Of a DNA stretch of 32,000 bases, positions 1,619-24,564 are shown one piece after another. How positions within the stretch are numbered: the stretch's first letter is position 1; every line of letters starts with the position of its first letter. The position numbers and the translations under genes are program-made. A model generated the notes under the pieces. The model ran no database searches. It saw nothing but the letters and a program-made list of their open reading frames with translations, and had not been told where the DNA came from. Origin of the DNA: Desulfobulbus propionicus DSM 2032 (GTDB lineage Bacteria; Desulfobacterota; Desulfobulbia; Desulfobulbales; Desulfobulbaceae); NCBI RefSeq assembly GCF_000186885.1, contig NC_014972.1, positions 2,130,001 to 2,162,000 of the forward strand, given 5' to 3'.

Positions 1619-1621
1619 CTG

Positions 1622-1894
1622 TTAACACCTGATTACGTTGATTTTATGGGCCATGCCGCCGCCTAGGGCATATCGCGTCCCCGACTTTTCAATCAGCACG
1701 GCGCCGCCATTTTGTTTTTGCACCACCATCAATTCATCGTTCAACTGGATGCCCATGCTCAGCAAACGCTCGCGCATCAGTGTTCCGCTGCGAAAAAACA
1801 CGATTCTCACCTTTTCCCCCTCGCTGGCAATGGCCAAAGGAAACGACGGGATTGGCGCGCCTCCGGCGTTGGCCAACAAGCATCCATTTCGCAT
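1622..1894 (-). CDS. feoA: Second FeoA family protein (90 aa)
   Basis: FeoA-like core ([44 protein letters not shown]). A strong SD AAGGAGG lies 7 nt upstream of the ATG at 1894 (reverse strand). There are 3 nt between its stop and the next feoA start. Confidence 0.85.
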
Positions 1895-1978
1895 TGCTCA
1901 TCCTCCTTGACCGCTACCGCCCCCTCCGTCTCACAACGAACCCGCGTTCGAGCACGCGGGACGGACAGCAGTACGACT

Positions 1979-2027
1979 GTTCTTGAATATTTAGCCAAAA
2001 CTAATTTTGGCGAATATACTCAAGAAC
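1979..2027. promoter_or_regulatory. 49-bp imperfect inverted repeat, candidate operator upstream of feoA-feoA-feoB
   Basis: The element reads GTTCTTGAATATTTAGCCAAAA-ctaa-TTTTGGCGAATATACTCAAGAAC. Aligning the left arm to the reverse complement of the right arm gives 20 matches in 23 columns, with one 1-nt indel and two mismatches. The outer 8-mers and inner 7-mers are perfect. It lies 85-133 bp upstream of the feoA start at 1894. Confidence 0.5.
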
Positions 2028-2396
2028 AATATGGAGTCAATAATTTTTTAAGCCTAGTCTAATTTTTGCCACCTATACGGCAGCAGCGGCTGAATCATGG
2101 AACCGCTGATCAGTAGCATCGAGAGGCAAGAAAAACGCAGGAAAAGGGACAAGGAGAGGAGAGGAGCCGGATTTGGCGCGTGTATTCTGTTGAACTTTTT
2201 TTTCGGAACTGTATGTTCTTTGGACACATTCCCTGCCCCCTCCATCAAGGGATGGGCGGTAGCACTTGATCAATCATCAAAAAAATTGAACACAAGCTAA
2301 GGCAAAATAGATTTTTCTTTCATCAGGTTTTTTTGTAAACATACCAGTAGTTTTTAAGTATTTTTATAAAAAATAGCAAAAAATCTTCATTTTTAC

Positions 2397-2408
2397 TGAT
2401 AATTATCA
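2397..2408. promoter_or_regulatory. Perfect 12-bp palindrome TGATAATTATCA, Fur-box-like core
   Basis: It is self-complementary and contains the GATAAT and ATTATC hexamers of the classical Fur box. It is 3 bp shorter than the 7-1-7 TGATAATnATTATCA form. It sits in the AT-rich region between feoA and the Mo-oxidoreductase/nuo operon. Confidence 0.3.
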
Positions 2409-2512
2409 CAAAATCAACCTGTTTACCCCCTCAACGGAGGCTAAAGACAAGACTGTTACAGCAAAATGCAATAAACGGGCAGCCTCTTTCCTGTAAATGT
2501 GGGCAGCCGCGA

Positions 2513-2542
2513 TTGAACAAATATATAAATTTTTCTTATATA
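2513..2542 (+). promoter_or_regulatory. Candidate sigma-70 promoter for the Mo-oxidoreductase/nuo operon
   Basis: TTGAAC at 2513-2518, then TATATA at 2537-2542 after an 18-bp spacer (or TTATAT after 17 bp). It lies about 60 bp upstream of ATG 2601. The call rests on sequence pattern only, in an AT-rich background where such matches are easy to find. Confidence 0.25.
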
Positions 2543-2600
2543 AAAAGTGTCCGGCTAGCAATCCGGCCGGTATATTGACCAAATCGTACGGGGTACCCTT

Positions 2601-4685
2601 ATGAAAGAAACGAAATACAGCATTTGTGGTATGTGCGCCGTGCGCTGCCCCGTGGCTGTGCACCTGGAAAACGACAAACCTGTGTGGATCGAAGGCAACA
2701 GCCATGACGGCGGCATGGGACGTAGCCTGTGCGCCAAGGGCGGCGCCGCCTTTGCTCAGCGACTGGACCGGCAACGGCCCACGGCTCCCCTGTTGCGCCG
2801 TGGGCAACGGGGCGAGGGCGAGTGGCGGGAAGTTTCCTGGGACGAGGCCTTTGACTACATCACCACCCGGCTCAATGCCATCATTGCCGAACACGGCGGC
2901 CGTTCGATCATGTTCTCTGACCGCGGCGGTCCCTTCGCCGACCTGCGGCAGGCCTTTGTCAAGGCTCTGGGATCCCCCAATTACCACAACCACGACTGCA
3001 CCTGCGGCCGCAACGTCCATCATGCCTCCAAATCGGTCTATGGCCTGGGGCGCAAGGACTTTGCCTACGATTACGAAAACGCTCGGCATATCGTCCTTTT
3101 TGGCCGCAACATCACCGAGTCGCTCAAAGTCAAAGAAGTGAAGAGCTTTCTCAAGGGGATCAAAAACGGGGCACGGGTGACCTATATCGATCCGCGGGCC
3201 TCGGTTACCGCCGGCAAGGCCAGCCGTTACTGGCAGATCAAACCGGGTACCGACTACGCCCTGCTGTTGGGCATTGCCCACTGTCTCGTTGCCAACAATT
3301 ACTACGATCTCGACTTTGTTGACCGCTACGTCAACGGCATGGCCGAATTCAAGGCCTTTCTCGAGCCCTACACCCCCCAATGGGCCGCTGGCGAGACCGG
3401 CATCGCCGCCGAGGAAATCGAAACCTTCTGCCGCGAGCTCAACGAGGACCGGCCCAAGGTGATCATTCATCCGGGTTGGATGCTGGCCCGTTACCGCGAC
3501 TCCTTCCATGCCTCGCGGATGATTCATATCATCAACGCCCTCATGGGCAGCATCGAACAGCCCGGCGGCCTGTTCTACCCCAAAGGACCCAAGGATGCCG
3601 GCAAATCCGGGCTCAAAAGTCTGGCTGCCCTGGTACCGGCGGTGAACGAGGATCGCGCCGACGGCTGCGGCAGTCGCTACCCCCAATGGGACAAGGGGGC
3701 GGGCATGCTCCAGACCGCCTACGAAGCCATCGACACCGGTGTGCCCTACCCGGTCAAAGCCTACTTTATCCATCGCCACAATCCCTTCATCGCCCTGCCC
3801 GACACCAAGGAGCAGCGGCGGATTCTCGACAAACTCGACCTGATCGTGGCCGTGGATGTTAACTTCTCGGAAACCGCCTGGTTCGCCGATGTCATCCTCC
3901 CGGAGAGCACCTTTATTGAACGTGCCTCCATCCTGCGCACGGAAAAGGGACTCAAACCCGGTTTCGGCCGCCGGCAACAGTGCGTCAAGCCCTTGAACAA
4001 CACCAAGGCTGGCTGGGAAATCTATATTGAACTGGCCAAGCGGATGGGCAAGGGCGAATACTTCCCGTTCAATTCCATCGAGGATATCTGGCAGTACCAG
4101 TTGCAGGATACCGGCCTTAGTGTGACTGATTTCGACGCCAAGGGATTTGTTAAACTGAGCGACAAACCCCTCTGGCTTGACCGCGACAAACTCAAATTCG
4201 GCACCGATTCCGGCAAGATCGAACTGGTCAATGCCAAGTGGGAGGCCATGGGGATCGCTTCACTGCCGCCCTATGAACCACCCCTGGCGCCGCCCGAGGG
4301 CAGCTTCCGGTTGCTGTTTGGCCGCAACGGCTACCAGGCCCATGGCCAGCACCAGAACAATCCCATCCTTGCCGATCTGCTCGATGTTAACAAGTTGTGG
4401 ATCAACACCGCTGCCGCCAAGCGGCTGGGAATCAAGAACGGCGACCAGGTTCTGGTGAAGAACGGCGATGAAGAGGGTCGGATTGCCGCCTACGTCACCG
4501 ACCTGATCCATCCCGAGGCGGTGTTCATGCTCCATGGCTTTGGCACCGATGTGCCCGCCAAAAAACGATCCGTTGGCAAGGGGCTGGCCGACCAGCTGTA
4601 CATGCAAGGAAAACTCAAGGAATGGGACAAGGCCGGCGGCGGTCTCAACCTGGCGGAAAGTTTTGTTACCGTTACCCCGGTTTAA
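2601..4685 (+). CDS. Molybdopterin (bis-MGD) oxidoreductase catalytic subunit, Psr/Phs-like, with no Tat signal (cytoplasmic), 694 aa
   Basis: The N-terminal [4Fe-4S] motif is C9-x2-C12-x3-C16...C44 (SICGMCAVRCPV...SLCAKG). Candidate Mo-ligand cysteines are in HNHDCTCGRN (C133/C135). C-terminal family motifs are FRLLFGRNGYQAHGQHQNNP and FMLHGFG. The in-frame TAG at 2556-2558 excludes a longer N-terminus, so a twin-arginine leader is impossible. There is no in-frame TGA. Confidence 0.9.
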   Translation: MKETKYSICGMCAVRCPVAVHLENDKPVWIEGNSHDGGMGRSLCAKGGAAFAQRLDRQRPTAPLLRRGQRGEGEWREVSWDEAFDYITTRLNAIIAEHGGRSIMFSDRGGPFADLRQAFVKALGSPNYHNHDCTCGRNVHHASKSVYGLGRKDFAYDYENARHIVLFGRNITESLKVKEVKSFLKGIKNGARVTYIDPRASVTAGKASRYWQIKPGTDYALLLGIAHCLVANNYYDLDFVDRYVNGMAEFKAFLEPYTPQWAAGETGIAAEEIETFCRELNEDRPKVIIHPGWMLARYRDSFHASRMIHIINALMGSIEQPGGLFYPKGPKDAGKSGLKSLAALVPAVNEDRADGCGSRYPQWDKGAGMLQTAYEAIDTGVPYPVKAYFIHRHNPFIALPDTKEQRRILDKLDLIVAVDVNFSETAWFADVILPESTFIERASILRTEKGLKPGFGRRQQCVKPLNNTKAGWEIYIELAKRMGKGEYFPFNSIEDIWQYQLQDTGLSVTDFDAKGFVKLSDKPLWLDRDKLKFGTDSGKIELVNAKWEAMGIASLPPYEPPLAPPEGSFRLLFGRNGYQAHGQHQNNPILADLLDVNKLWINTAAAKRLGIKNGDQVLVKNGDEEGRIAAYVTDLIHPEAVFMLHGFGTDVPAKKRSVGKGLADQLYMQGKLKEWDKAGGGLNLAESFVTVTPV

Positions 4686-4701
4686 GCGCAGGAGAAACAC
4701 C

Positions 4702-5205
4702 ATGAGCAACTATATCGTCACCCAGAACGTGGCCGACTGCATCGGCTGCCGGGCCTGCGAGGTCCATTGCAAGGACAAGAACAACAGCGGTCCCGGCGCC
4801 TTCTATTGCAGGATGATCGAGGTGAGTTCGAGCGAGACCTCGCCGCCACGCATCGATTTTGTCTACCTGTCCTGCTTCCACTGCGAAAAACCGTGGTGTG
4901 TCGATGCCTGCCCCACCGGCGCCATGCGGCGGCGCGACAAGGATGGCATCGTCTATGTCGAAGAGAAGGCCTGTGTCGGCTGCAAGGCCTGCATCACCGC
5001 CTGCCCCTGGACCGTGCCCCAATGGAACCCGGAAACGGGCAAGGTGGGCAAGTGCGACCTGTGCATGGACCGCATCGATCAAGGACTGGAACCGGCCTGT
5101 GTCACCAAATGCACCACCGGCTGCCTGAGCTTCACCACCCCGTCGGCGGCCTCGCAGGCAGCCCGCCAAGCCTTCGCCGAACAGCTGATGCTCAACCGGC
5201 GCTGA
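4702..5205 (+). CDS. 4x[4Fe-4S] ferredoxin-type electron-transfer subunit (DmsB/PsrB/HycB-like), 167 aa
   Basis: Four cysteine groups are present: CIGCRACEVHC, CFHCEKPWCVDACP, CVGCKACITACP and CDLC...CVTKC. GGAG lies 7 nt upstream of ATG 4702, and the gene begins 16 nt after the upstream stop. There is no hydrophobic segment. The ORF-track start at 4534 overlaps the upstream gene and is rejected. Confidence 0.9.
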   Translation: MSNYIVTQNVADCIGCRACEVHCKDKNNSGPGAFYCRMIEVSSSETSPPRIDFVYLSCFHCEKPWCVDACPTGAMRRRDKDGIVYVEEKACVGCKACITACPWTVPQWNPETGKVGKCDLCMDRIDQGLEPACVTKCTTGCLSFTTPSAASQAARQAFAEQLMLNRR

Positions 5206-5218
5206 AAGGAGTGTAGCC

Positions 5219-5587
5219 ATGGACGCGATCCCTGGGGAATATCTCGGTATTCTGCTGCTGCTCATCTTCGGCATTCTCTTTGGCGTGCTGACCCTGTTTG
5301 TGGGTCGGTTTTTTCGCCTCAGCCGGCCCTACCGCGAAAAGCTGATTGCCTATGAATCGGGCAACGAGCCCACCGCGGCCCCGCGGATGCGCTTCTCGGT
5401 CAAGTTTTACCTGATCGCCATCCTCTTTGTGGTCTTCGATGTCGAGTGCATCTATCTTTATCCCTGGGCGGTCAGTTATGACCGCCTGGGCCTGTTCGCC
5501 CTGGTGGAGATGCTCCTGTTCATCGCGCTGCTCCTGGTCGGCTATGTCTACGCCTGGAAGAAGGGGGTCCTGCAATGGGAGAAATAA
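5219..5587 (+). CDS. nuoA: NADH-quinone oxidoreductase (complex I) subunit A
   Basis: 122 aa with three TM segments and typical NuoA/ND3 motifs ([19 protein letters not shown]). AAGGAG lies 7 nt upstream, and the gene begins 13 nt after the ferredoxin-subunit stop. Confidence 0.95.
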
Positions 5588-6096
5588 GTGATCCAACCAT
5601 GGTCAAGCTGGAGGAGGGGGTGCGCTACATCCCCGGGGCCAATGCCATCCTGGGGCCGCTGAACAAGCTGGTCAACTGGGGCCGGGCCGGGTCCATCTGG
5701 CCGGTCACCTTTGGTTTGGCCTGCTGCGCCATCGAGATGATGGATGCCGGTGCCTCCACCAACGATCTCGACCGCTTCGGCATCCTCTTCCGCGCCAGCC
5801 CCCGTCAGGCGGATTGCATGGTGGTGGCCGGCACGCTGAGCAAGAAAATGGCGCCGGTGTTGCGGAGGGTCTACGATCAGATGCCCGAGCCCCGTTATGT
5901 GCTGGCCATGGGCAGCTGCGCCTGCAGCGGCGGGGTATTTGACACCTACGCCGTCACCCAGGGGGTGGATCAGATCATCCCGGTGGACGTCTATGTCCCC
6001 GGCTGCCCGCCCCGTCCCGAGGCCTTGCTGGAGGGCTTCCTCAAACTCCAGGAAAAAATTCTCAAGGAGCAGTTCCGATGGAGCCAGTGGCGATAA
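5575..6096 (+). CDS. nuoB: Complex I subunit B (N2 cluster carrier)
   Basis: Motifs [22 protein letters not shown] and PGCPPRP are present. The start is ambiguous between ATG 5575 (13-nt overlap with nuoA, G-rich SD upstream) and ATG 5599. Confidence 0.93.
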
Positions 6097-6662
6097 TCGA
6101 TCGGCTGCGCGCCGAGTTTCCCGACGAGGTTGTGCAGGGCTACGTCAACCAGGGCCAGGGCGCGGTGGTGATCCGTTCCGGCCGCATCGTCGAGATGCTG
6201 CGCTGGCTGCGCGATAGCGACGACCTGCGGATGAACCACCTGCGCTCGCTGTGCGGGGTGGATAACCTACGGCGCAAGGGGCCGGGGTTGTCACGTTTTG
6301 AGGTGGTGTACAATCTCTATTCCATCCCCCTGCGCCACGAGATCCGATTGCGGGCCGAGGTGGGCGACAAGGACCCGGCCATTGATTCGGTGGTCGAACT
6401 GTGGCCGGGCGCCGACTGGCTGGAGCGTGAAACCTTTGACCTGATGGGTATCCGTTTCACCAATCACCCCAACCTGCACCGGGTGCTGCTGCCCGAGGAT
6501 TGGGTCGGCCATCCGCTGCGCAAGGATTATCCCCTCAAGGGCAAGGAAGAGTGGGCCGGAATGACCGAGCTGCTCGACAAGATCAAGGAATTGGATCAGC
6601 ACGGCTTTGATCCCGAAGGACACGCCCACGGACAGAGCGCACCCGAGCAGGAGGATGACTGA
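6078..6662 (+). CDS. nuoC: Complex I subunit C (30-kDa subunit), not fused to NuoD
   Basis: Motif [41 protein letters not shown] is present. It overlaps the nuoB end and the nuoD start. Confidence 0.93.
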
Positions 6663-7888
6663 TGACCCGGCCGATCAAACAACATCTGGAAATTCCGGTG
6701 GCCGACGGCGCGGGCGAACGCTATTCCCTGCGCATGGGGCCGCAGCATCCGGCCACCCACGGCGTGCTCCGGGTCGATCTCGAATTGGATGGCGAAACCA
6801 TCATCGAGTGCATTCCCCAGGTGGGCTATCTGCATCGGGGTTTTGAAAAACTGGCGGAAAACAAAACCTATGCCCAGGCCCTGATCCTCACCGACCGGCT
6901 CGACTACATCGCGGCCATGGCCAACAATGTCGGCTACTGCGTGGCGGTGGAGCGGCTGCTGGGCATCTCGGTGCCGCTGCGCGCCCAATATATCCGCACC
7001 ATAGTCGGCGAGATGTCGCGTCTGTGCTCGCACCTGCTGTGGCTGGCCACCCATGCCCTGGATATCGGAGCCATGACCGTATTTCTCTACTGTTTTCGCG
7101 AGCGCGAGATTCTGCTCGACCTGTTCGAGGAGCTGTGCGGGGCCCGGCTGACCTTTTCCTATCCCCGTATCGGCGGCGTGCGCCAGGATGTGACCTCGTA
7201 TTTCGTCGATGAACTGCAACGGTTTCTCGACATGTTTCCCTCCAAGATCGAGGAATACGAGACCCTGATCGACACCAACCGCATCTGGCTCAAACGCACG
7301 GTCGGCGTTGGCACGCTCACCGGCGAGGAGGCCCTGGCACTTGGCCTGACCGGCGCCTGCCTGCGCGGCTCGGGTGTGGATTACGACATCCGCAAGCATC
7401 AGCCCTACGACGCCTACCCTTTAGTCGATTTCGAGGTGCCACTCGGCAGCGACGGCGACATCTACGCCCGGTATCGTTGCCGCATGGAAGAGATGCACCA
7501 GTCGGTGCGCATCATCCAGCAGTGCATCGATCAACTGCCGCCCGGTCCGATCATCGGCCCGGACGCCCCGGACCTGGTGATGCCCAACAAGGTGCCGGCC
7601 CGCATCGAGGCCGGGACCAACGAGTACGGCACCGGCCTGATCAAGCTGATCCGTGATCGCAATCTGTATATTTCCGGCGATGTCTATGTGGCCACCGAAG
7701 TGCCCAAGGGCGAGTTGGGTTTTTATTTCATCTCCGACGGCAACAACCGCCCCTACCGGATGCACATCCGCTCACCCTCCTTCATTCACATCGGGGCGCT
7801 GGCGGCCATTGCCAAAGGTGAACTGATCGCCGACCTGATCGCCAACATCGGCAGCCTGGACGTGGTCCTGGGTGAATCCGACCGGTAA
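6662..7888 (+). CDS. nuoD: Complex I subunit D (49-kDa subunit)
   Basis: 408 aa with motifs MGPQHPATHGVLR, GYLHRGFEKL and RSPSFIHI. The start overlaps the nuoC stop (TGATG). Confidence 0.95.
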   Translation: MTRPIKQHLEIPVADGAGERYSLRMGPQHPATHGVLRVDLELDGETIIECIPQVGYLHRGFEKLAENKTYAQALILTDRLDYIAAMANNVGYCVAVERLLGISVPLRAQYIRTIVGEMSRLCSHLLWLATHALDIGAMTVFLYCFREREILLDLFEELCGARLTFSYPRIGGVRQDVTSYFVDELQRFLDMFPSKIEEYETLIDTNRIWLKRTVGVGTLTGEEALALGLTGACLRGSGVDYDIRKHQPYDAYPLVDFEVPLGSDGDIYARYRCRMEEMHQSVRIIQQCIDQLPPGPIIGPDAPDLVMPNKVPARIEAGTNEYGTGLIKLIRDRNLYISGDVYVATEVPKGELGFYFISDGNNRPYRMHIRSPSFIHIGALAAIAKGELIADLIANIGSLDVVLGESDR

Positions 7889-7921
7889 ATCGGCCGTGTC
7901 TGTCTGATCAACGAGGAACCT

Positions 7922-8890
7922 ATGAATATTCTGCTCACCCTGGTGTGGCTCCTGATCCTCTTCGCCGTGGTCATGCTCCATGTGGCCTATGCGACCTATT
8001 TCGAGCGCAAGATCATCGGCCACATGCAGGTCCGTCTCGGGCCGATGCGGGTCGGCTGGCACGGTCTGCTCCAGCCCATTGCCGACGGCATCAAAAGTTT
8101 CTTCAAGGAAGATATCATCCCGGAGAACGCCGACAAGCCGACCTTCCTCGCCGCGCCGATCATTTGTCTGGTGGCGATGATGACCTCCCTGGCGGTGCTG
8201 CCCTTTGCCAAGGGCTGGGTGCTGGCGGATATCGACATCGGGCTGCTGTTCATCTTTGCCATGAGTTCCCTGGCCAGTTACGGCGTGGTCCTGGCAGGCT
8301 GGGCCTCGAACTCCAAGTACAGCTTTCTCGGCGGCCTGCGCTCCATGGCCCAGGTGATCAGCTACGAGATCAGCATGGGCCTCAGTCTGGTAGGGGTGAT
8401 GCTCATGGCCGGCTCGCTTAACCTGAGCGAGATTGTCGAGGCCCAGGGCGATTCATTCCTGGGCATGTACCTCATGCCCCAGTGCATCGGTTTCTTCGTC
8501 TTTTTCATCAGCATGCTGGCCGAGACCAATCGGGTCCCCTTTGATCTGCCCGAGGCGGAAACCGAGCTGGTGTCCGGCTACTGCACCGAATACAGCGGCA
8601 TGCGCTACGCCATCTTCTTCATGGCCGAATACATCGGCATGATGGTCATGGCCTCCATCGCCACCATCTGTTTTCTCGGCGGCTGGAACGGTCCCTTTGC
8701 CGTGCCGTTCTTCCCGCCGCTGTGGTTCGTGCTCAAGGTCTACCTGTTCATGTTTCTCTTCATATGGATTCGGGCCACCCTGCCACGCTACCGCTACGAT
8801 CAGCTGATGGATCTCGGCTGGAAATTGCTCATCCCGCTGGCGCTGGTCAATATCGTCCTCACCGCCTGCCTGAAGGCGCTCATCAGTTAG
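7922..8890 (+). CDS. nuoH: Complex I subunit H
   Basis: 322 aa polytopic protein with motifs ERKIIGHMQVRLGPMRVGWHGLLQPIADGIK and LAETNRVPFDLPEAETELVSGY. It starts only 33 nt after the nuoD stop, so there are no nuoEFG genes in between. Confidence 0.95.
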   Translation: MNILLTLVWLLILFAVVMLHVAYATYFERKIIGHMQVRLGPMRVGWHGLLQPIADGIKSFFKEDIIPENADKPTFLAAPIICLVAMMTSLAVLPFAKGWVLADIDIGLLFIFAMSSLASYGVVLAGWASNSKYSFLGGLRSMAQVISYEISMGLSLVGVMLMAGSLNLSEIVEAQGDSFLGMYLMPQCIGFFVFFISMLAETNRVPFDLPEAETELVSGYCTEYSGMRYAIFFMAEYIGMMVMASIATICFLGGWNGPFAVPFFPPLWFVLKVYLFMFLFIWIRATLPRYRYDQLMDLGWKLLIPLALVNIVLTACLKALIS

Positions 8891-8914
8891 AGGAGGGGAG
8901 GGAAACTCCAAACC

Positions 8915-9553
8915 ATGCAGATTCAATACAAACCCCGACGCGGACTCCTGGCGACCATTTTCCAGGCGGAGATCCTCCAGGGCATGACCCTGACCCTGAA
9001 GCGGCTCTTTTCCAAGCCGATCACCCGCCAGTATCCCGAGGAAAAACCGCGCATCCGTCCCGGCTTTCGCGGCCAGCACGCCCTGGTGCGCGATCCCGAG
9101 ACCAAGGACTGCAAGTGCATCGGATGCATGCGTTGCGCCATGGTTTGTCCGTCGCGCTGCATCCGCATCCGCTCCCACAAGGACAAGGAACCGGGCAGCC
9201 GTCGGATCATCGACTGCTACCGCATCGAATCGCTGCGCTGCGTCTACTGCGGCTACTGCGAGGAGGTTTGTCCGGTCAATGCCATCGTCCTTACCGAGGT
9301 CTTTGAGTACGGCTCCTATGAGCGGCCCTCGCTCTACTTCACCCGGGAACAGTTGTTGGCCAACTGGGACCGGTTTGTGGCGGAAAAGGGCGCAGAGATG
9401 GAGACCTATGTCAATCCTTTCTGGCGGCCGCGCGGCCTGCCTGAAGAGGGACTGCCCGCCCCCAAACGGCTGCCGGTGTCGCCCGAGTGGAGCGGCGAGC
9501 AGCAGGTGGTGGGCAGAAAGTGGCGGCAGCATCTACCGCCGGAACAATCCTGA
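8915..9553 (+). CDS. nuoI: Complex I subunit I (2x[4Fe-4S])
   Basis: Motifs CIGCMRCAMVCP and CVYCGYCEEVCP are present. At 212 aa it has a somewhat long Pro/Glu/Trp-rich C-terminal tail. Confidence 0.93.
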   Translation: MQIQYKPRRGLLATIFQAEILQGMTLTLKRLFSKPITRQYPEEKPRIRPGFRGQHALVRDPETKDCKCIGCMRCAMVCPSRCIRIRSHKDKEPGSRRIIDCYRIESLRCVYCGYCEEVCPVNAIVLTEVFEYGSYERPSLYFTREQLLANWDRFVAEKGAEMETYVNPFWRPRGLPEEGLPAPKRLPVSPEWSGEQQVVGRKWRQHLPPEQS

Positions 9554-9562
9554 GGAGGGGCC

Positions 9563-10126
9563 ATGTTTCTCCAGTTCTTTTTCGGCTACTGCGCGCTGAT
9601 GATCATTGCCAGCGGCATCCTGGCCATCAGTTTGCGCAACCTGGTGCACAGCGTGCTCATGGTGCTGGTGCTGTTCTTTCACATGGCCGGCCTCTATCTG
9701 ACCCTGAACGCCGAGTTCTTGGCTGCGGTGCAGATCATCGTCTATGCCGGCGCCATTCTCGTGCTCTACCTCTTTGTGCTCTTTCTGGTCAGCCTGCGCG
9801 AGGAACTGCATTTGGACGCCTTTGTCCCGGGGGCTTGGCTTGGGCGGATCATTGCCGTTGGTCTGGCCGTGGGGCTATTGTATGTCATCCCCGCCTTTAC
9901 CCTGGGCGAGAAGGGGACCTGGTCGGTCAGTGCCATCCGCGAGTTGACCCACACCAAGGCCCTGGGCCAGGAGTTGTATTCCGCCTATTTGCTCCCCTTT
10001 GAGATCGCCGGCCTGATTCTGCTGGTTGCCCTGATCGGCGGCCTGGTGCTGGCGCGCCGGGAGGAGGTACCTCTGCCCGGTGCGGATGCGGACCCATCCC
10101 CGGAACACAAGGAGGTGGCGCGATGA
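9563..10126 (+). CDS. nuoJ: Complex I subunit J
   Basis: 187 aa with the NuoJ/ND6 pattern (NLVHSVLMVLVLFFHMAGLYLTLNAEFLAAVQIIVYAGAILVLYLF). It has an ATGA overlap with nuoK. Confidence 0.92.
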   Translation: MFLQFFFGYCALMIIASGILAISLRNLVHSVLMVLVLFFHMAGLYLTLNAEFLAAVQIIVYAGAILVLYLFVLFLVSLREELHLDAFVPGAWLGRIIAVGLAVGLLYVIPAFTLGEKGTWSVSAIRELTHTKALGQELYSAYLLPFEIAGLILLVALIGGLVLARREEVPLPGADADPSPEHKEVAR

Positions 10127-10425
10127 TCCCCCTGTCCTGGTACATGGCCCTGGCCGCGATCCTGTTCTGCATCGGGGTGTGCGGCTTTCTCACCCGGCGC
10201 AACGTGATCATCATGTTTCTCTCCATCGAGCTGATGCTCAACGGCGTCAACCTCAACCTGGTGGCGCTGAGTCATTTCATGGACAGTGTCCGCGGCCAGG
10301 CCTTCACCTTTTTCATCATCACCGTGGCCGCGGCCGAGGCCGCCATCGGTTTGGGCATCGCTATCGCCCTCTACCGCAGCCGGCGCAGCGTGCACGTCGA
10401 TACCATCAACCACCTCAAGGGATAA
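10123..10425 (+). CDS. nuoK: Complex I subunit K
   Basis: 100 aa with the NuoK/ND4L pattern (RRNVIIMFLSIELMLNGVNLNLVA...AAAEAAIGLGI). Confidence 0.93.
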   Translation: MIPLSWYMALAAILFCIGVCGFLTRRNVIIMFLSIELMLNGVNLNLVALSHFMDSVRGQAFTFFIITVAAAEAAIGLGIAIALYRSRRSVHVDTINHLKG

Positions 10426-10429
10426 CAAT

Positions 10430-12352
10430 ATGCCGGCCTCACTGCTTGCCATCCCGCTTCTGCCGCTGGCCTCCTTTGTCCTCACCCTGTTGCTGGGCAA
10501 ACGCTGGGGAACCCGGGCCCATTGGCTGCCGATCATCACCGTGCTGCTCTCCTTTGGTTGCGCCCTGGCTACCTTGTTCCGAGTTCAGTCCGGGACGATC
10601 ATCAATCAGGACCTCTACACCTGGATCGAGTCGGGCACCCTGCGGGTCTCGGTCGGCTTCCTGGTTGATCAGCTGACCGCGGTGATGCTGATCGTGGTCA
10701 CTTCCATCAGTTCGCTGGTGCATATCTATTCGGTGGGCTACATGAAAGGCGAAGAGGGCTATTACCGCTTTTTTGCCTATCTGAGCCTGTTCACCTTCTC
10801 CATGCTGATGCTGGTGCTGGGCAACAACTTCCTCCAGCTCTTTTTCGGTTGGGAGGCGGTGGGCCTGTCGTCCTATCTGCTGATCGGTTTTTACTATGAG
10901 AAGCAGTCGGCCTCGGATGCGGGCAAAAAGGCCTTTATTGTCAACCGGTTTGGCGATTTTGGCTTCATCTTGGGGTTGTTTCTCATTTTCACTCAGTTCG
11001 GCAGCCTCCACTATCAGGAGGTCTTCAGCCGAGTGGGTTCTCTTGACGGGCAGACCCTCTCCCTGTTCGGCACCCCGGTCAGTGTGGCAACCCTGATAGC
11101 CCTACTGCTGTTCTGTGGGGCCATTGGCAAGTCGGCCCAGATGCCGCTCCACGTCTGGTTGCCCGATGCCATGGAAGGGCCGACTCCGGTCAGCGCCCTG
11201 ATCCATGCCGCCACCATGGTCACGGCCGGTGTTTTTTTAGTTGCCCGCTGTAATCCGATTTTCGAACTGTCCCACTTCACCCTGAACCTGATCACCGTGT
11301 TGGGTGCCATCACCGCCCTGTTCGCCGCCACCATCGCCCTGGTCCAGACCGACATCAAGCGGGTGGTGGCCTATTCCACGGTCAGCCAACTGGCCTACAT
11401 GTTCATCGGCTGCGGCGTCGGTGCCTACTCGGCCGGCATCTTCCATCTCTTCACCCACGCCTACTTCAAGGCCCTGCTCTTTCTCGGCTGTGGTTCGGTT
11501 ATTCTCGGCATGCATCACCAACAGGACGTGCGCTCCATGGGCGGCCTCAAGCAGTACATGCCGATCACCTACTGGACCTTTCTCCTCGCCTCGCTATCCA
11601 TCTCCGGCGTGCCTGGACTGGCCGGGTTTTTCAGCAAGGACGAGATCCTGCTCATGGCCTTCAACACCCCTCTGGCCGCCGGCAAATTCGCCTGGGCCAT
11701 CGGCACGCTGGTGGCCTTCATGACCGCCTTCTACTCGTTCCGCCTCTTTTTTCTTATCTTTCACGGCGAGTTCCGGGGCACCGACCACCAGCGCGATCAT
11801 CTCCATGAATCACCCCTGGTGGTCACCCTGCCGCTGATGCTGCTGGCCTGCGGCGCCGTGGCTGCCGGATGGTTTGGCGTGCCTGCCATCCTCGGCGGTG
11901 ACAACCACTGGGCCCATTTCCTGGAGCCGGTGCTCGGCCATCCCCCTATCCATGTCTCCGGAACCGTGGAGGCCCTGCTCATGGGGAGCTCGATCCTCGC
12001 CGGTGTCTGCGGGATCGGCCTGGCCTTTTACCTGTACCGGCTCAAGCCGCAGCTGCCGACGCTGCTGGCCGAACGACTCTCCTTTGTCTACAGGCTGCTG
12101 CTGAACAAGTATTACATCGACGAACTGTACATTGGCGCCATCGTCAAGCCCACCCTGGCCTTCAGCCACGGCGTGCTGTTGCGGCTGGTGGACTTGGCCT
12201 GCATCGAAGGAGTGGTCAACGGCTTGCCCCGAGCCATTGGCGCTTTTTCCCAACGTCTGCGGCGCATCCAGGACGGCCAGGTCTCGCACTATCTCGCCTG
12301 GATGGGCGGTGGCGCCCTGGCCCTGGTGGTGGTCCTGCTGATCGGCCGTTAA
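10430..12352 (+). CDS. nuoL: Complex I subunit L (antiporter-like)
   Basis: 640 aa counted from ATG 10430 (MPASLLAIPLLPLASF...). Motifs FFGWEAVGLSSYLLIGF and KSAQMPLHVWLPDAMEGPTPVSALIHAATMV are present. The track ORF start at 10286 lies inside nuoK and is rejected. Confidence 0.93.
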   Translation: MPASLLAIPLLPLASFVLTLLLGKRWGTRAHWLPIITVLLSFGCALATLFRVQSGTIINQDLYTWIESGTLRVSVGFLVDQLTAVMLIVVTSISSLVHIYSVGYMKGEEGYYRFFAYLSLFTFSMLMLVLGNNFLQLFFGWEAVGLSSYLLIGFYYEKQSASDAGKKAFIVNRFGDFGFILGLFLIFTQFGSLHYQEVFSRVGSLDGQTLSLFGTPVSVATLIALLLFCGAIGKSAQMPLHVWLPDAMEGPTPVSALIHAATMVTAGVFLVARCNPIFELSHFTLNLITVLGAITALFAATIALVQTDIKRVVAYSTVSQLAYMFIGCGVGAYSAGIFHLFTHAYFKALLFLGCGSVILGMHHQQDVRSMGGLKQYMPITYWTFLLASLSISGVPGLAGFFSKDEILLMAFNTPLAAGKFAWAIGTLVAFMTAFYSFRLFFLIFHGEFRGTDHQRDHLHESPLVVTLPLMLLACGAVAAGWFGVPAILGGDNHWAHFLEPVLGHPPIHVSGTVEALLMGSSILAGVCGIGLAFYLYRLKPQLPTLLAERLSFVYRLLLNKYYIDELYIGAIVKPTLAFSHGVLLRLVDLACIEGVVNGLPRAIGAFSQRLRRIQDGQVSHYLAWMGGGALALVVVLLIGR

Positions 12353-12382
12353 CTCGAACCCTTACTCGCGGAAGTGTCGTCC

Positions 12383-13888
12383 ATGTCGATTCCTCTTCTC
12401 AGCACCCTGATCTTCTTTCCGGTCCTCGGCGGCCTGTCGCTGCTGATCGTCCCCCGGCAACAGACCGCCACCATCCGCTTGATGGCTCTGTTCGTCAGCC
12501 TGGTCGAGTTGTTGCTCACCCTGCCGGTGGTCCTCCTCTTTGACAAGACCACCGCCCGGATGCAGTTCACCGAACTCCATCCCTGGATCAGCACCCTCAA
12601 CATCAATTACAGCCTGGGCATCGACGGCATCAGCATTCTCTTCCTCCTGCTCACCGCCCTGATCACCCTGCTCTCGGTGCTGGTCTCCTGGGAGGCGATC
12701 CACGACAAGGTCCAGGAGTTCTTTGTCGCCCTGCTGCTGCTGGAGGGGGCGATGATGGGGGTGTTCTGCGCCCTTGATTTCTTCCTGTTTTATATCTTTT
12801 GGGAGGCCATGCTTATCCCGATGTTCCTGATCATCGGCATCTGGGGCGGTCCCAACCGGATCTACGCCACGGTTAAGTTTTTTCTCTACACCCTGGTCGG
12901 CAGCCTGCTGATGCTGGTGGGCATCATCCTCTTGTACCAAAACGGCGGCCATACCTTTGATATCCTCAAGCTGGCCGGGCAAAACTATTCCCTCAAACTG
13001 CAGCTGATCCTTTTCTGGGCCTTTTTCGCCGCCTTTGCGGTCAAGGTACCGATGTGGCCGGTGCACACCTGGCTGCCGGATGCCCACACCGAGGCCCCGG
13101 CCGCCGGTTCGGTCATCTTGGCCGGCGTGCTGATCAAAATGGGGGCCTACGGGTTCTTGCGCTTCTCCCTGCCCATCCTGCCTGAGGCCACCCAGCAGAT
13201 GCTTGTGCCCATGCTGGTCCTGTCGGTGATTGCCATCGTCTACGGGGCCATCATCTGCCTGGCCCAGACCGATCTCAAGCGGCTGATCGCCTACAGCTCG
13301 GTAAGCCACATGGGGTTCGTGACGCTCGGCCTGTTCGCCCTCAACCAGCGTGGTTTGGAAGGCGCCATCCTGCAGATGATCAATCACGGTGTGGTCACCG
13401 GTGCCCTGTTTCTCGCCATCGGCATGATTTATGAACGGACCCACACCCGCGAGATCAGCGCCTACGGCGGCCTGGCCACCACCATGCCGGTTTTTGCCGG
13501 TTTTTTTCTGCTGTTCACCCTGGCGGCGGTGGGCCTCCCCGGCACCAACGGCTTCATCGGCGAGTTTCTCATCCTCCTCGGCGGCTTTGAACGTGCGCCG
13601 TGGGCAGCGGTCGTGGCCGCTTCCGGCCTGATCCTCGGGGCCTGGTACATGCTGTGGCTCTACCAGCGTATCTTTTTCAACGAGGTCAGCACCTCCCTGC
13701 ACGGGTTGACGCAGCTCAACCTACGCGAGATCCTGACACTCACTCCCATGGTGGTGCTGATCTTCTGGATTGGCCTCTATCCCAATGCACTGCTGGGCTT
13801 TCTCCACGTTTCGGTCGGCCATCTGCTCGATCAGGTCAACGGTGTCGGCCTGGCCGGGCCGGTGCTGCCGCCCGTCAACCTTCCCTGA
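12383..13888 (+). CDS. nuoM: Complex I subunit M (antiporter-like)
   Basis: Motifs MSIPLLSTLIFFPVLGG... and VKVPMWPVHTWLPDAHTEAPAAGSVILAGVLIKMG are present. ATG 12383 is preferred (GGAAG 8 nt upstream) over the GTG at 12374 used in the ORF track. Confidence 0.9.
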   Translation: MSIPLLSTLIFFPVLGGLSLLIVPRQQTATIRLMALFVSLVELLLTLPVVLLFDKTTARMQFTELHPWISTLNINYSLGIDGISILFLLLTALITLLSVLVSWEAIHDKVQEFFVALLLLEGAMMGVFCALDFFLFYIFWEAMLIPMFLIIGIWGGPNRIYATVKFFLYTLVGSLLMLVGIILLYQNGGHTFDILKLAGQNYSLKLQLILFWAFFAAFAVKVPMWPVHTWLPDAHTEAPAAGSVILAGVLIKMGAYGFLRFSLPILPEATQQMLVPMLVLSVIAIVYGAIICLAQTDLKRLIAYSSVSHMGFVTLGLFALNQRGLEGAILQMINHGVVTGALFLAIGMIYERTHTREISAYGGLATTMPVFAGFFLLFTLAAVGLPGTNGFIGEFLILLGGFERAPWAAVVAASGLILGAWYMLWLYQRIFFNEVSTSLHGLTQLNLREILTLTPMVVLIFWIGLYPNALLGFLHVSVGHLLDQVNGVGLAGPVLPPVNLP

Positions 13889-13918
13889 TTTTTTCGCGAC
13901 ACGGATAAAGGAGCGCGT

Positions 13919-15364
13919 ATGATTGCAACTGTGGCTGTCAACTGGGCCGCCGTGGAACCCATCCTCCCTGAACTGCTGCTGATCACCATCGGCGTGCTGC
14001 TGATCGGCTGCGACCTGTTCCTGCCCCGTCAGCGGCAACTGCTGCCGTGGCTGACCGTGATCGGCTGCCTCACGGCCCTGGCCATGATCTTGGGCTCCCG
14101 GCCGACCGTCGCCTTTGGCGGCATGTTTCTTGCCGACGGCTATGCCATGGTGTTCAAGACCATCTGTCTGGGATCGGTGATCCTGAGCGTGCTGATGAGC
14201 GAGCATTTTTGCCGCGTTATCGGTTTGCGCCAAGGCGAATACTACAGCCTCATGCTCTTCTCCCTGGTGGGTATGCTGCTGATGGCCTCAGCCGGCGACC
14301 TGATGGTACTCTACCTGGGCCTGGAGCTGATGGCCCTGCCGATCTATGCCCTGGTTGGGTTGCACAAGCGCGAGCAGCGGACCAGCGAGGCGGCGATCAA
14401 ATATTTCCTCATGGGCTCCTTTGGCTCGGCCCTGCTGCTGTTTGGCATGTCCATGGTCTACGGCCTGACCGGCACCACCGAGATCGCCCGCATCGCCGAG
14501 CTGATCGGCTCCCGGCAACTGGTCGCCAATCCGGCCCTGCTCGCCGGGCTGGGTCTGCTCTTGGCGGGCTTCTGCTTCAAGGTCGCGGTGGCCCCTTTTC
14601 ACCTCTGGACTCCGGATGTCTACGAGGGCGCACCCACCATTGTCACCGCCTTCATGTCCGTCGGTCCCAAGGCGGCCGGATTTGCCATCTTCGGCCGCGT
14701 GCTCTTTGTCGGTCTACCCGAGTTGCACGGCCACTGGGGACCGGTGCTGGCGGTGCTCGCCCTGCTGACCATGGCGGTGGGCAACATCACGGCCCTGTGC
14801 CAGCAGAGCCTCAAGCGGATGCTCGCCTACTCGGCCATCGCCCATGCCGGCTATGCCCTGCTGGGCCTGCTCGCCGGAACCGCCGAGGGTATGGCCGCCA
14901 CCATGACCTATCTGATGGTCTACCTGTTCATGAACATCGGCGCCTTTGCCATCCTCATGCTCCTGGCCACGCCGGATGCGCCCTGTGAATCCATCGACGA
15001 CTGCAAGGGGCTGGCCAGCCGCAACCCGGTGGCCGCGGCCCTGATGCTGGTCTTCCTCTTCTCGCTCACCGGCATTCCGCCCACCGGCGGCTTCATCGGC
15101 AAGTTCTACCTGCTCAAGGCCGCCTTTATTGCCGGCTACCCCCTGACCGTGGTCGGCGCGGTCCTGTTCAGCGCCATTTCCGCCTTCTTTTACCTGCGGG
15201 TGGTGCGCTTTATGTACATGGAGGCTCCGCAGCAAACGGCCACCCTCCAATTTTCGCCCGGGATGCGGGCCGCCCTTGGCCTCTGCCTGCTGGGTGTGCT
15301 TGGTCTGGGACTGTTTCCCGGCTCACTGCTCAACTGGACCGTGTCGGCGTTCTCGGGGATGTAA
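13919..15364 (+). CDS. nuoN: Complex I subunit N (antiporter-like)
   Basis: 481 aa with motif FKVAVAPFHLWTPDVYEGAPTIVTAFMSVGPKAAG. AAGGAG lies 6 nt upstream of the ATG. Confidence 0.93.
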   Translation: MIATVAVNWAAVEPILPELLLITIGVLLIGCDLFLPRQRQLLPWLTVIGCLTALAMILGSRPTVAFGGMFLADGYAMVFKTICLGSVILSVLMSEHFCRVIGLRQGEYYSLMLFSLVGMLLMASAGDLMVLYLGLELMALPIYALVGLHKREQRTSEAAIKYFLMGSFGSALLLFGMSMVYGLTGTTEIARIAELIGSRQLVANPALLAGLGLLLAGFCFKVAVAPFHLWTPDVYEGAPTIVTAFMSVGPKAAGFAIFGRVLFVGLPELHGHWGPVLAVLALLTMAVGNITALCQQSLKRMLAYSAIAHAGYALLGLLAGTAEGMAATMTYLMVYLFMNIGAFAILMLLATPDAPCESIDDCKGLASRNPVAAALMLVFLFSLTGIPPTGGFIGKFYLLKAAFIAGYPLTVVGAVLFSAISAFFYLRVVRFMYMEAPQQTATLQFSPGMRAALGLCLLGVLGLGLFPGSLLNWTVSAFSGM

Positions 15365-15542
15365 ACAGTCCCCAAACCAATCCCGCGCCATCACCGGCGG
15401 TATGCGGCAACCAACAAAAAAGATCGAACGAAAGCGCGCTCACCGCACGGTTTCCATTGAGTTTTCCCTATTGTTTCAGCGCCATGTTTCCGAAGAACAG
15501 GTACCCTCTTCCTTTTTCAACCTTTCACCTGACGGAACCACG

Positions 15543-16253
15543 ATGCGAAATGGATTACTCGTGATAGTGTTGCTGACTGGCCTGGCGCTGGCAACCGGCT
15601 GCACCCAAAGCAAAGGCTCCCTGTTTGGCGGCCAGGAGACCATCGAATCCGCTTCCCAATGGAATGTGCTGGCCAACGATGTCGCCAATCGGATCAACAG
15701 TGAACTGATGCGGCAACATTATCTCACCGCTTCGGTCTTTGTTCGGCATAGTTGCGGCACACCCGAAAAGTGCGGGGAAGGCGGGACCTTTCCCTTTGAC
15801 GAGGGATTCAACGATCTCCTGACCACCCAACTGGTCAATTTCGGCGTCCACACCATGGTGGCACCGGAACACGCCAACCTAGTGGTCGACTACAAGGTGC
15901 AAACCCTCTACCATCCGTCTGACTGGCGTTCGTGGCATTGGCCCAAGCCAGGCGTACTTACCGCCCTGGCTGCGGGAATCAGCGTCATCCGCGACGCACC
16001 GTGGGAGATCATTCCCGTCGCTGCGGCCGTCGATATGTTCCGCGCCAATTACCGCCACGACGGCCAATACGAGGTGATCATCACCGTTTCCATTGTCGAC
16101 AAGAACCGCTATGTGACGCGATTCTCCGACGTATACTTCATCAACAACGGCGACTTCTGGCAGTATCGGCCAACCGCCCCCGCGCCTGAAATTCAGCTCA
16201 CCAGCCCGAGCGGCCCGGCTGCGCCTGCAACGACCCGGAAAACCAGCCTATGA
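15543..16253 (+). CDS. Lipoprotein of unknown function (236 aa), distantly FlgO/LpoB-like by eye
   Basis: Signal peptide plus lipobox MRNGLLVIVLLTGLALATG|C. The ORF-track start at 15276 lies inside nuoN, and ATG 15543 immediately precedes the signal peptide. The stop overlaps the next gene's start (ATGA). Confidence 0.75.
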   Translation: MRNGLLVIVLLTGLALATGCTQSKGSLFGGQETIESASQWNVLANDVANRINSELMRQHYLTASVFVRHSCGTPEKCGEGGTFPFDEGFNDLLTTQLVNFGVHTMVAPEHANLVVDYKVQTLYHPSDWRSWHWPKPGVLTALAAGISVIRDAPWEIIPVAAAVDMFRANYRHDGQYEVIITVSIVDKNRYVTRFSDVYFINNGDFWQYRPTAPAPEIQLTSPSGPAAPATTRKTSL

Positions 16254-22755: not shown

Positions 22756-22895
22756 ACGCCTCTCCGGCGTCGCAGCCGCAGTTTTCTTTTCCGGTCGAAA
22801 AGCGCACGAGCAGGCGCCGTTGTCAAGGGACACGCTCGACTAGGAGCTGACAGGAAAGGGTAAAACCAATGCCATACTCTTTTTCAGGAGGAACC

Positions 22896-23537: not shown

Positions 23538-23594
23538 CGGCAGCGCGCCACTTCCCCACCTCCGTCAGGGTATTCGGCCCCCATGAGGTTCGTC

Positions 23595-24561: not shown

Positions 24562-24564
24562 ACT

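Follow-up and report, generated by a model that had tools for sequence, protein, structure and literature searches.

Leaderless polysulfide/thiosulfate reductase-like genes in front of a nuoEFG-less complex I operon of Desulfobulbus propionicus: a conserved gene link and a possible sulfur-compound head

What takes the place of the NADH-oxidising module in a complex I operon from which nuoE, nuoF and nuoG are missing is the question raised by a stretch of the genome of Desulfobulbus propionicus DSM 2032 (contig NC_014972.1, positions 2,130,001 to 2,162,000 of the forward strand; hereafter the window, 32 kilobases (kb) in length). Thirteen plus-strand genes at window positions 2601-15364, all twelve junctions of which lie within -19 to +33 nucleotides (nt), follow one another in the order Mo-FeS-nuoABCDHIJKLMN and form one operon. 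The first encodes the catalytic subunit of a molybdoenzyme (Mo) resembling the polysulfide and thiosulfate reductases (Psr/Phs) and the second an iron-sulfur (FeS) electron-transfer subunit. A sequence-only reading, made by a model from the letters and their open reading frames (ORFs) without database searches, had proposed this pair as a non-NADH electron-input module for complex I; its statements on the sequence, including the coordinates and the intergenic gaps, were all confirmed in the present analysis.

The proposal itself is partly supported: the identity of the pair, its location and its conserved link to nuo are supported by the data presented below, and the docking, the substrate and the direction of electron flow are inferred. 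The reading preferred here, at a probability somewhat short of even, is that the pair docks on NuoI, NuoB, NuoC and NuoD in the place of NuoEFG, and that the assembly would be a reversible proton-coupled menaquinol:thiosulfate (or polysulfide) oxidoreductase, normally working as a reductase powered by the proton-motive force (pmf).

The Mo-FeS pair and the nuo genes behind it

The genes of the operon are given below with their window coordinates, strand and supporting matches (E-values, or scores in bits with the cut-off of the model).

2601-4685, plus strand: Mo catalytic subunit, 694 amino acids (aa); PF04879, PF00384, PF01568; NCBIfam PhsA 545 bits; 2VPW_A
4702-5205, plus strand: FeS electron-transfer subunit, 167 aa; Fer4_11 8.7e-27; PsrB (2VPW_B) 105 bits
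5219-5587, plus strand: nuoA; PF00507 4.4e-37; AAGGAG precedes
5575-6096, plus strand: nuoB; NF005012 244 bits (cut-off 116)
6078-6662, plus strand: nuoC; TIGR01961 137 bits (cut-off 122)
6662-7888, plus strand: nuoD; NF004739 510 bits (cut-off 360), TIGR01962 506 bits (cut-off 459)
7922-8890, plus strand: nuoH; PF00146 3.4e-129, NF004741 383 bits (cut-off 305)
8915-9553, plus strand: nuoI, 212 aa; NF004538 136.5 bits (cut-off 135)
9563-10126, plus strand: nuoJ; PF00499 1.1e-36
10123-10425, plus strand: nuoK; PF00420 6.9e-31, NF004322 128.4 bits (cut-off 128)
10430-12352, plus strand: nuoL, 640 aa; NF005141 779 bits (cut-off 556)
12374-13888, plus strand: nuoM; TIGR01972 651 bits (cut-off 264), NF004499 624 bits (cut-off 585)
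13919-15364, plus strand: nuoN, the last gene of the operon; TIGR01770 448 bits (cut-off 333)

The start of nuoL was corrected to ATG 10430 from the GTG of the mechanical ORF, and nuoM starts at GTG 12374 or perhaps at ATG 12383. The Mo and FeS genes are separated by 16 nt, the FeS gene and nuoA by 13 nt, with nuoA standing behind AAGGAG, and nuoD and nuoH by 33 nt. The gap between the two redox genes had been read as leaving no room for a promoter or terminator. A scan of 1600-16400 for consensus sigma-70 promoters and intrinsic terminators gave no site at 4685-4702 or 5205-5219; the total of promoter- and terminator-like sites in the scanned region was near the shuffle expectation.

The Mo gene starts at ATG 2601. 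An in-frame TAG lies at 2556-2558, 45 nt upstream, with no ATG, GTG or TTG between the two, and the FS0 [4Fe-4S] motif of the protein (Cys9-x2-Cys12-x3-Cys16...Cys44) begins at residue 9; thus, as had been read from the letters, there is no twin-arginine (Tat) leader and the enzyme is cytoplasmic. The three domains typical of Mo/W-bisPGD enzymes (DMSO reductase superfamily), Molybdop_Fe4S4 (PF04879), Molybdopterin (PF00384) and Molydop_binding (PF01568), were all detected above the Pfam cut-offs, and Cys133 (in NHDCTCGRN), the putative Mo ligand, aligns with Cys173 of PsrA in a phmmer comparison with 2VPW_A. Matches to solved structures are led by PsrA (2VPW_A; E-value 7.5e-114, full length), followed by acetylene hydratase (2.4e-50), FdhH (6e-41) and ArrA (1e-39), and PhsA is the best of the NCBIfam models with 545 bits, the next being Fdh-alpha with 228 bits. 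These values bear out the description of the enzyme as Psr/Phs-like and not FdhH-like. The C-terminal motifs from which that description had been drawn, FRLLFGRNGYQAHGQHQNNP and FMLHGFG, are present in the protein and match their counterparts in the alignment with Thermus thermophilus PsrA, YRLLYGRSPVHTFARTQNN and YIVHGFG. The alignment to the PhsA profile begins at profile position 43, i.e. past the Tat leader, and falls into two stretches; because its score of 545 bits is below the equivalog cut-off of 694 (NF012032), the protein is regarded as Phs/Psr-like and not as an orthologue of PhsA.

The same score would be compatible with an enzyme acting on another substrate (sulfite, tetrathionate, arsenic, selenium or an organic compound), or even with a relic that, like NuoG's C-terminal domain, is non-redox or structural. 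The second-best solved relative, acetylene hydratase, is a non-redox enzyme, the NuoG model gives a weak match (51 bits) to the Mo protein, and specificity is hard to read from sequence in this superfamily. Such a role is nevertheless considered highly improbable. The protein retains its FS0 cysteines, the Mo-ligand Cys and the two pterin-binding domains, making a loss of the cofactor unlikely, and PsrA leads the solved matches by more than 60 orders of magnitude. Genes of the sulfite-exporter family are recurrent neighbours of the pair, its hosts are anaerobes of the sulfur cycle and thiosulfate induces a related pair, as described in the following sections.

A metagenome cluster matches the Mo protein with 100% identity, and proteins of Desulfobulbus metagenome-assembled genomes (MAGs) and of Desulfobulbus elongatus DSM 2908 match it with 87-90%. 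Across 79 species-representative loci (designated L with a number where they have to be told apart), all homologues at least 43% identical are leaderless and start with M-K-x-T-x-Y-S-I-C-G-M-C, and all those 31-37% identical carry a SRRxFLK Tat leader. Because the presence or absence of the leader splits the loci so cleanly, the Mo-FeS pair is assigned to a distinct cytoplasmic branch of the Psr/Phs clade. Leaderless full-length relatives amount to about ten 50%-identity clusters among the 1215 matches with E <= 1e-30 in an exhaustive representative search. One leaderless relative, P0244 (921 aa, 44% identical), has about 215 extra C-terminal residues and may represent a naturally fused Mo and FeS subunit.

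The FeS protein is a soluble ferredoxin of the Fer4_11/DmsB-like type (Fer4_11, 8.7e-27) with four [4Fe-4S] motifs. It carries four groups of four cysteines (13/16/19/23, 58/61/66/70, 91/94/97/101 and 118/121/133/137) and no 19-residue window at a Kyte-Doolittle value of 1.6, i.e. no hydrophobic segment, in keeping with what had been noted of the 167-aa partner. Its closest solved relative is PsrB (2VPW_B, 105 bits), with HycB (7Z0S_B) at 48 bits. A longer ORF from ATG 4534 (223 aa, with 'RFKRRR') was considered as a Tat form of the protein and rejected, as it has no hydrophobic h-region and overlaps the Mo gene; since the homologues begin with MS(K/N)Y and AGGAGA precedes ATG 4702, ATG 4534 is not the true start. 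As neither redox subunit has a Tat leader, export of one by hitch-hiking on the other is unlikely. The C-terminal tail of the FeS protein (TPSAASQAARQAFAEQLMLNRR; about 20 residues of the pattern ..P..AS..KR..FAE.L..N.., window 5140-5205) is present in the sampled pairs linked to Nuo, to an NAD(P)H module or to Rnf and is absent from two stand-alone pairs (L017:12103-12567 and L038:12115-12567), a very small sample, and may mark a docking interface.

Behind the pair, all eleven subunits of the Q- and P-modules (A, B, C, D, H, I, J, K, L, M and N) were found with Pfam, and NuoB, C, D, H, I, K, L, M and N also score above the NCBIfam cut-offs. Of a canonical complex I, the nuo genes thus supply both the quinone module (NuoB, C, D, I) and the module that translocates protons (NuoA, H, J, K, L, M, N); models of FpoC, D, H, I, K and L match the window subunits below their cut-offs. 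Motifs read by eye show the ligands of cluster N2 in NuoB (a motif that begins with CC, and GCPP) and the quinone-site motifs HPATHG and DRLDY in NuoD to be intact. The alternative of NuoD being a NiFe hydrogenase large subunit was discarded, because PF00374 reaches 20.8 bits against a cut-off of 25.8 over the N-terminal 76 residues only, and the NuoD equivalog scores 510 against 360.

No match to nuoE, nuoF or nuoG (2Fe-2S_thioredx, Complex1_51K, NuoG) was obtained among the operon genes or the large ORFs of the window, and nuoH sits 33 nt past nuoD, at the usual place of nuoEFG; their reported absence between nuoD and nuoH is therefore upheld. The same holds for the membrane anchor: neither the operon nor any large ORF of the window gave a match to an NrfD/PsrC-type or cytochrome-b gene, and nuoA comes next after the FeS gene. 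NuoI carries a C-terminal extension of about 50 residues (YVNPFWRPRG..LPAxKR..VPxEW..E.QVVG, window 9395-9553). Its closest solved relatives are TYKY/NuoI proteins of complex I, which align to about residue 160 and leave the extension unaligned. The extension is kept in all Psr-linked loci, including one from Nitrospirota (L036, with FWRPAG), and is a candidate docking element.

Conservation of the link and exchange of partners

Loci with a Mo subunit at least 60% identical and at least 1.5 kb of downstream sequence were regarded as informative (n = 35). The nuo genes directly follow Mo-FeS in 34 of them, which include Desulfobulbales species representatives, Desulfobulbus elongatus DSM 2908, a Thermodesulfobacteriaceae MAG and metagenome contigs, the Mo protein of the latter being named Desulfocapsa sulfexigens in one source. 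The exception, L017:9995-15731 from the Desulfobulbus MAG binchicken_co2_65 (Mo 84% identical), is a stand-alone pair that has lost the FeS tail. Behind it lies a large PAS/His-kinase/receiver gene of opposite orientation, and the pair may be a second, paralogous copy or result from a chimeric assembly.

The link recurs in Nitrospirota with other gene orders, namely TauE-TauE-Mo-FeS-nuoB-D-I-A-C-H-J-K in L036 and L091 and nuo..IJKLMN-CBS-TauE-TauE-Mo-FeS in L089, and the Mo subunits of L036 and L091 are only 51% identical to that of the window. Since 34 of the 35 loci are linked and the arrangement recurs in Nitrospirota in other orders, the Mo-FeS/nuo link is, on these comparative data, not a matter of chance. 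The possibility held out by the sequence-only reading as fatal to it, that orthologues are generally unlinked to nuo, is thus not what was found among the loci at least 60% identical; across the family as a whole, the pair is found beside other partners too, or by itself.

Identity between L036 and the window ranges from 62% for NuoH and NuoD to 71% for NuoB. A Desulfobulbales MAG (L007:8-7061) holds a second nuo cluster of divergent sequence (H, I, K, antiporter-like subunits, N), which ends about 3 kb upstream of the Mo gene; its products are 25-49% identical to those of the window, NuoH being at 44%. Since the L036 proteins, from another phylum, are closer to the window (62-71%) than is the NuoH of this second cluster (44%), the Psr-linked Nuo seems to travel with the Mo-FeS pair.

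Some peculiarities of these loci may be recorded here. Some Desulfobulbales genomes hold two Nuo systems side by side, as in L007. In L036:9980-22049 and L091:9001-20097 the unusual nuo order is accompanied by a non-standard distal arm, consisting of a 496-aa antiporter-like protein, an 86-aa ORF and a 589-aa protein with a weak NADHdeh_related match. L044:9171-22056, from the uncultured delta proteobacterium MFD02979.bin.2.74, shows a divergent FeS gene, a frameshifted Psr-like Mo gene, nuoA-B-C and a second Fer4_11 gene, continuing with a nuoE-like gene, a split nuoF-like gene, a 657-aa fusion of a NuoG-N-terminal-like part with NuoD, and nuoH. A cytoplasmic Psr-like gene adjoins here a nuo operon with NADH-module genes; long-read errors may account for the frameshifts.

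More distant members of the clade carry other modules behind the pair. In L085-L088 and L090, TauE-TauE-Mo-FeS is followed by a HoxU/NuoG-N-terminal-like 2Fe-2S/4Fe-4S protein and a GltD-like NAD(P)H subunit with a NuoF-type 4Fe-4S domain. This combination of TauE-TauE-Mo-FeS with an NAD(P)H module is the commonest context in the Nitrospirota branch (e.g. L085:8042-15343), and the six-gene unit resembles a soluble form of the enzyme that would depend on NAD(P)H. In L040:10001-18554, from the MAG of Desulfobacteraceae bacterium S20.Bin143 (Mo 43% identical), the pair is followed by a complete rnfC-D-G-E-A-B operon. Stand-alone copies occur in L017, L038 and L084 (Thermodesulfovibrio thiophilus). 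TauE/SafE genes of the sulfite-exporter family flank the pair in most of the sampled loci outside the Desulfobulbales-type clade (L036, L038, L085 and L087-L091).

A neighbour-joining tree (50 bootstraps) places the Nuo-linked L036/L091 as the sister group of the NAD(P)H-linked L085/L086 with 98% support, and on this ground the partner module was swapped between close relatives. The genes after the pair repeatedly encode predicted low-potential redox partners, and two of these partners are ion-translocating membrane complexes. The Mo-FeS pair thus seems to behave as a portable catalytic head, since distant clade members carry an NAD(P)H module, rnfCDGEAB or nothing behind it. These comparisons suggest that the nuo genes of the window encode the redox partner of the pair, the swapping of partners being the strongest comparative argument for this view.

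The arrangement has a published precedent. In Thermodesulfovibrio sp. N1, the genes THER_0567/0568 adjoin THER_0569-0582, and both the gene link and the idea of a coupling were put forward by Frank et al. 2016 (PMC5165239). As in the window, Psr/Phs A and B genes adjoin there a nuoA-N cluster without nuoEFG; the organism differs in belonging to another phylum, Nitrospirota, and the case was published as a genomic remark without biochemistry or a survey. The window is thus a further, much better-supported instance of a hypothesis already voiced. New in the present work are the survey showing the strictness of the link in Desulfobulbales, its recurrence in other gene orders, the swapping of partners (Nuo, Rnf, NAD(P)H), the candidate docking features and the argument on direction.

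In agreement with the earlier remark that a biochemical description of such an assembly was not known, no biochemical or structural study of a Psr-Nuo assembly was found in the searchable literature, nor any statement of a Psr-Nuo link in that on cable bacteria, Desulfobulbus propionicus and Desulfobulbales.

Docking, direction and competing explanations

In the preferred arrangement, the four-cluster PsrB-like subunit would sit on NuoI, as NuoG does in complex I and HycB on HycF in formate hydrogenlyase, and would connect the Mo site electronically with cluster N2 and with the menaquinone site. Formate hydrogenlyase of E. coli (7Z0S/7Z0T) likewise uses a signal-less Mo-bisPGD enzyme and a four-cluster ferredoxin as its head, FdhF/HycB docking on the homologues of NuoI, NuoB and NuoCD; the FeS subunit and NuoI have recognisable relatives in HycB and HycF, and in the window the corresponding parts are encoded, their docking being proposed by analogy. 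The two systems differ in that the window module is a quinone-type Nuo, with NuoD, H, L and M above the equivalog cut-offs, its Mo enzyme is Psr-like and its FeS subunit is nearer to PsrB. PsrABC of T. thermophilus (2VPW-2VPZ) contains the closest solved relatives of both redox subunits and shares the Mo-ligand Cys (Cys173), FS0 and the four clusters. However, PsrA is Tat-exported and periplasmic and PsrC, of the NrfD type, anchors the enzyme and binds quinol, whereas the window pair is leaderless and has no PsrC. Eleven-subunit cores without NuoEFG but with another donor module are represented by Fpo (FpoF/F420H2), cyanobacterial NDH-1 (ferredoxin) and the Nuo of Campylobacter (flavodoxin); unlike the proposed assembly, none of these is known to use a Mo-bisPGD enzyme or to be tied to sulfur chemistry.

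Published proteomes bear on the question from two sides. Desulfolithobacter dissulfuricans has an identical operon (GF1_30490-30540; PMC9751629), with lengths of 701 aa for PhsA-1, 168 for PhsB-1, 124 for NuoA, 173 for NuoB, 195 for NuoC and 408 for NuoD. PhsA-1, PhsB-1 and NuoA-D were all detected, at similar abundances of 0.04-0.12%; PhsA-1, PhsB-1 and NuoC were higher in thiosulfate disproportionation, and NuoA and NuoB were detected only there (PMC9751629). The abundance noted for NuoD (GF1_30540) is a single value, without a comparison between conditions (PMC9751629). Dissulfuribacter thermophilus has a leaderless PhsAB-like pair (DITHS69_2027/2028), more than 60% identical to that of D. 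dissulfuricans and located far from its nuo genes (2265-2274); the pair is strongly up in thiosulfate disproportionation and the Nuo subunits are down (PMC13490349). Both organisms are thus sulfur-disproportionating Desulfobacterota with leaderless Phs-like A/B pairs that lack a C subunit, but in D. thermophilus the pair lies apart from nuo and is regulated in the opposite sense, whereas in D. dissulfuricans NuoA-D follow as in the window. Both studies treat the pair as a soluble enzyme, and neither remarks on the nuo link (PMC13490349, PMC9751629).

Several of these observations weigh against the preferred reading, as do some general considerations. The docking is inferred, and membership in one operon indicates co-expression, not a physical complex; the substrate, thiosulfate or polysulfide, has likewise been deduced from sequence relationship. 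Forms of complex I that lack NuoEFG are widespread, with ferredoxin generally taken as their electron donor, and disproportionation yields about -22 kJ/mol, so that 4 H+ per thiosulfate looks too costly. The window contains no TauE gene, and the PhsA score lies below its cut-off.

To the same side belong the stand-alone or nuo-unlinked pairs (L017, L084 and D. thermophilus, the last with its opposite regulation) and the occurrence of Nuo without both NuoEFG and a Psr pair. The latter is seen in a second Thermodesulfovibrio nuo cluster, which adjoins PFOR (PMC5165239), and in Desulfurivibrio dismutans AMeS2, where a Mur-ligase gene and no Psr pair precedes nuoA and Nuo is still induced in sulfur disproportionation; the D. 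dismutans cluster RS03515-03575 had been considered as a carrier of the pair and was rejected for this gene order. These cases would be expected if there were no shared complex, the pair being a free soluble thiosulfate/polysulfide reductase that works on a carrier such as ferredoxin and the eleven-subunit Nuo a ferredoxin:menaquinone oxidoreductase, both co-transcribed because they serve the same sulfur-dependent growth mode and the same ferredoxin pool. The length and tail of the PsrB-like subunit, which are nearly the same beside Nuo, the NAD(P)H module or Rnf and show no obvious Nuo-specific adaptation, point in the same direction, as does the soluble enzyme modelled by the authors of the D. 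thermophilus study (PMC13490349).

Separate enzymes are a serious rival but are, on balance, judged less likely than the docked complex. The Mo-FeS-nuoA junction is strictly kept in 34 of the 35 loci, the link recurs in three gene orders and in two clades of the Mo subunit, and the downstream module is swapped for other redox partners and not simply lost. In addition, the NuoI extension is clade-specific, and FdhF-HycB-HycF (7Z0S) offers a precedent built from the same kinds of parts.

If the docked complex is accepted, its substrate would be a sulfur compound, most likely thiosulfate, in view of the Psr/Phs affinity, the TauE/SafE neighbours and the induction of the D. thermophilus pair in thiosulfate disproportionation. 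The direction of electron flow may be approached from redox potentials. The S0/HS- couple lies at about -270 mV. Quoted E0' values are -402 mV for thiosulfate/(HS- + HSO3-) and -74 mV for menaquinone (PMC13490349). According to our own calculation, 4 H+ per 2 e- at a pmf of 150 mV would provide a lift of 300 mV, to about -374 mV, and the thiosulfate couple is estimated to lie near -200 mV at realistic concentrations. Reduction driven in reverse by the pmf is feasible on these values. Because menaquinone lies at a much higher potential than the sulfur couples, the complex would probably run in the reverse direction as a rule, with inward movement of H+ via NuoLMN/H pushing electrons from menaquinol to the sulfur acceptor. 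Such a device would supply low-potential electrons for the cytoplasmic reduction of thiosulfate or sulfur when the quinone pool is the only source of electrons, as in thiosulfate or sulfur disproportionation. For sulfur disproportionation, physiologists long ago deduced a need for reversed electron transport, and the proposed machine would be the device that was missing.

A comparable uphill reaction, from menaquinol to thiosulfate, is carried out by PhsABC of Salmonella, and its thiosulfate reduction is said to have been found by Stoffels et al. in 2012 to need the pmf. PhsA is also the best NCBIfam model for the Mo protein, and the energetic problem solved by PhsABC is the one proposed here for the Nuo part; however, PhsABC is periplasmic, uses the haem-b subunit PhsC and has no proton-pumping antiporter-like subunits, and the PhsA cut-off is not reached in the window. 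From the redox potentials, an output role is favoured over an input role with modest confidence. Of the original proposal of an electron-input module, the part that rests on the nuo link is thus supported by its conservation, and the word input is questionable, a pmf-driven output being at least as plausible.

The same complex could also run forward, the Mo enzyme oxidising sulfide to polysulfide, or sulfide and sulfite to thiosulfate, with electrons passing via PsrB and NuoI/B to menaquinone and NuoLMN pumping protons out, as an energy-conserving alternative to the non-pumping sulfide:quinone reductase. All the linkage evidence fits this version equally, complex I is reversible, and Desulfurivibrio and cable bacteria oxidise sulfide via reversed enzymes of sulfate reduction. 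Moreover, the Nuo-like proteins of D. dismutans are up in sulfur disproportionation, for which the authors invoke 'some unknown electron-donating oxidoreductase'. Forward operation is nevertheless regarded as distinctly unlikely, since the step from S0/HS- to menaquinone is only about 200 mV, too little for 4 H+ per 2 e- against a normal pmf, and the same obstacle is met with the thiosulfate couple near -200 mV. The sister operons with NAD(P)H or Rnf modules fit a reductase working on low-potential donors better than a dehydrogenase, and the characterised Psr/Phs enzymes are reductases.

The most far-reaching formulation, in which a single membrane machine has exchanged the NADH module for a Psr/Phs molybdoenzyme and uses inward H+ to lift menaquinol electrons to about -400 mV, with a head that is also portable onto Rnf and NAD(P)H modules, is doubtful as a whole. 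If the reversed device exists, it would give a testable answer to how sulfate reducers and disproportionators obtain electrons of about -400 mV for cytoplasmic thiosulfate reduction from the menaquinone pool. The heads known for complex I are those for NADH, F420H2, ferredoxin and flavodoxin, with formate dehydrogenase in its hydrogenase relatives, and a molybdoenzyme head for a sulfur compound would be a new member of this series. It would also be a living example of the presumed ancestral state of NuoG's cofactor-less C-terminal domain. Cultured carriers of the operon are at hand in Desulfolithobacter dissulfuricans GF1 and Desulfobulbus elongatus DSM 2908, so that these predictions can be tested now.

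The upstream region and neighbouring genes

The operon is preceded by an AT-rich region of 540 nt, and the GC content falls to 0.49 in 2001-3000. The 420 nt before the Mo gene were aligned for 14 orthologous loci, and the following element was delimited by columns conserved in at least 85% of the sequences.

2302-2358, no strand assigned: conserved non-coding element (GCAAAATAGATTT...TTTTGTA.A.ATA...) in the AT-rich region 5' of the operon

A second conserved block lies about 50-80 nt before the Mo ATG, at about 2520-2550. The conserved blocks show no clear sigma-70 consensus, a scan for sigma-54 -24/-12 elements upstream of the operon gave no consistent site across the 14 loci, and an Rfam scan of the whole window (e.g. 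for a Moco riboswitch in the 540-nt leader) gave no family at the gathering score. The element at 2302-2358 is a candidate operator or promoter region, possibly the target of a regulator. Further upstream, the ORFs at 381-953, 1236-1625 and 1712-2062 have no Pfam or NCBIfam match.

On the other side, nuoN is followed by about 180 nt of non-coding DNA. The genes downstream of it are unrelated to the operon and comprise a FlgO-like gene, an MFS gene, SelO, thiamine salvage genes and a sigma-54 regulator, the last being a sigma-54 response regulator at 28292-29983 with no evident relation to the operon. The stretch at 21154-28485 consists of ordinary genes, encoding the SelO adenylyltransferase, a HAD hydrolase, the products of thiM, thiE and thiD and an NMT1/THI5-type ABC transporter.

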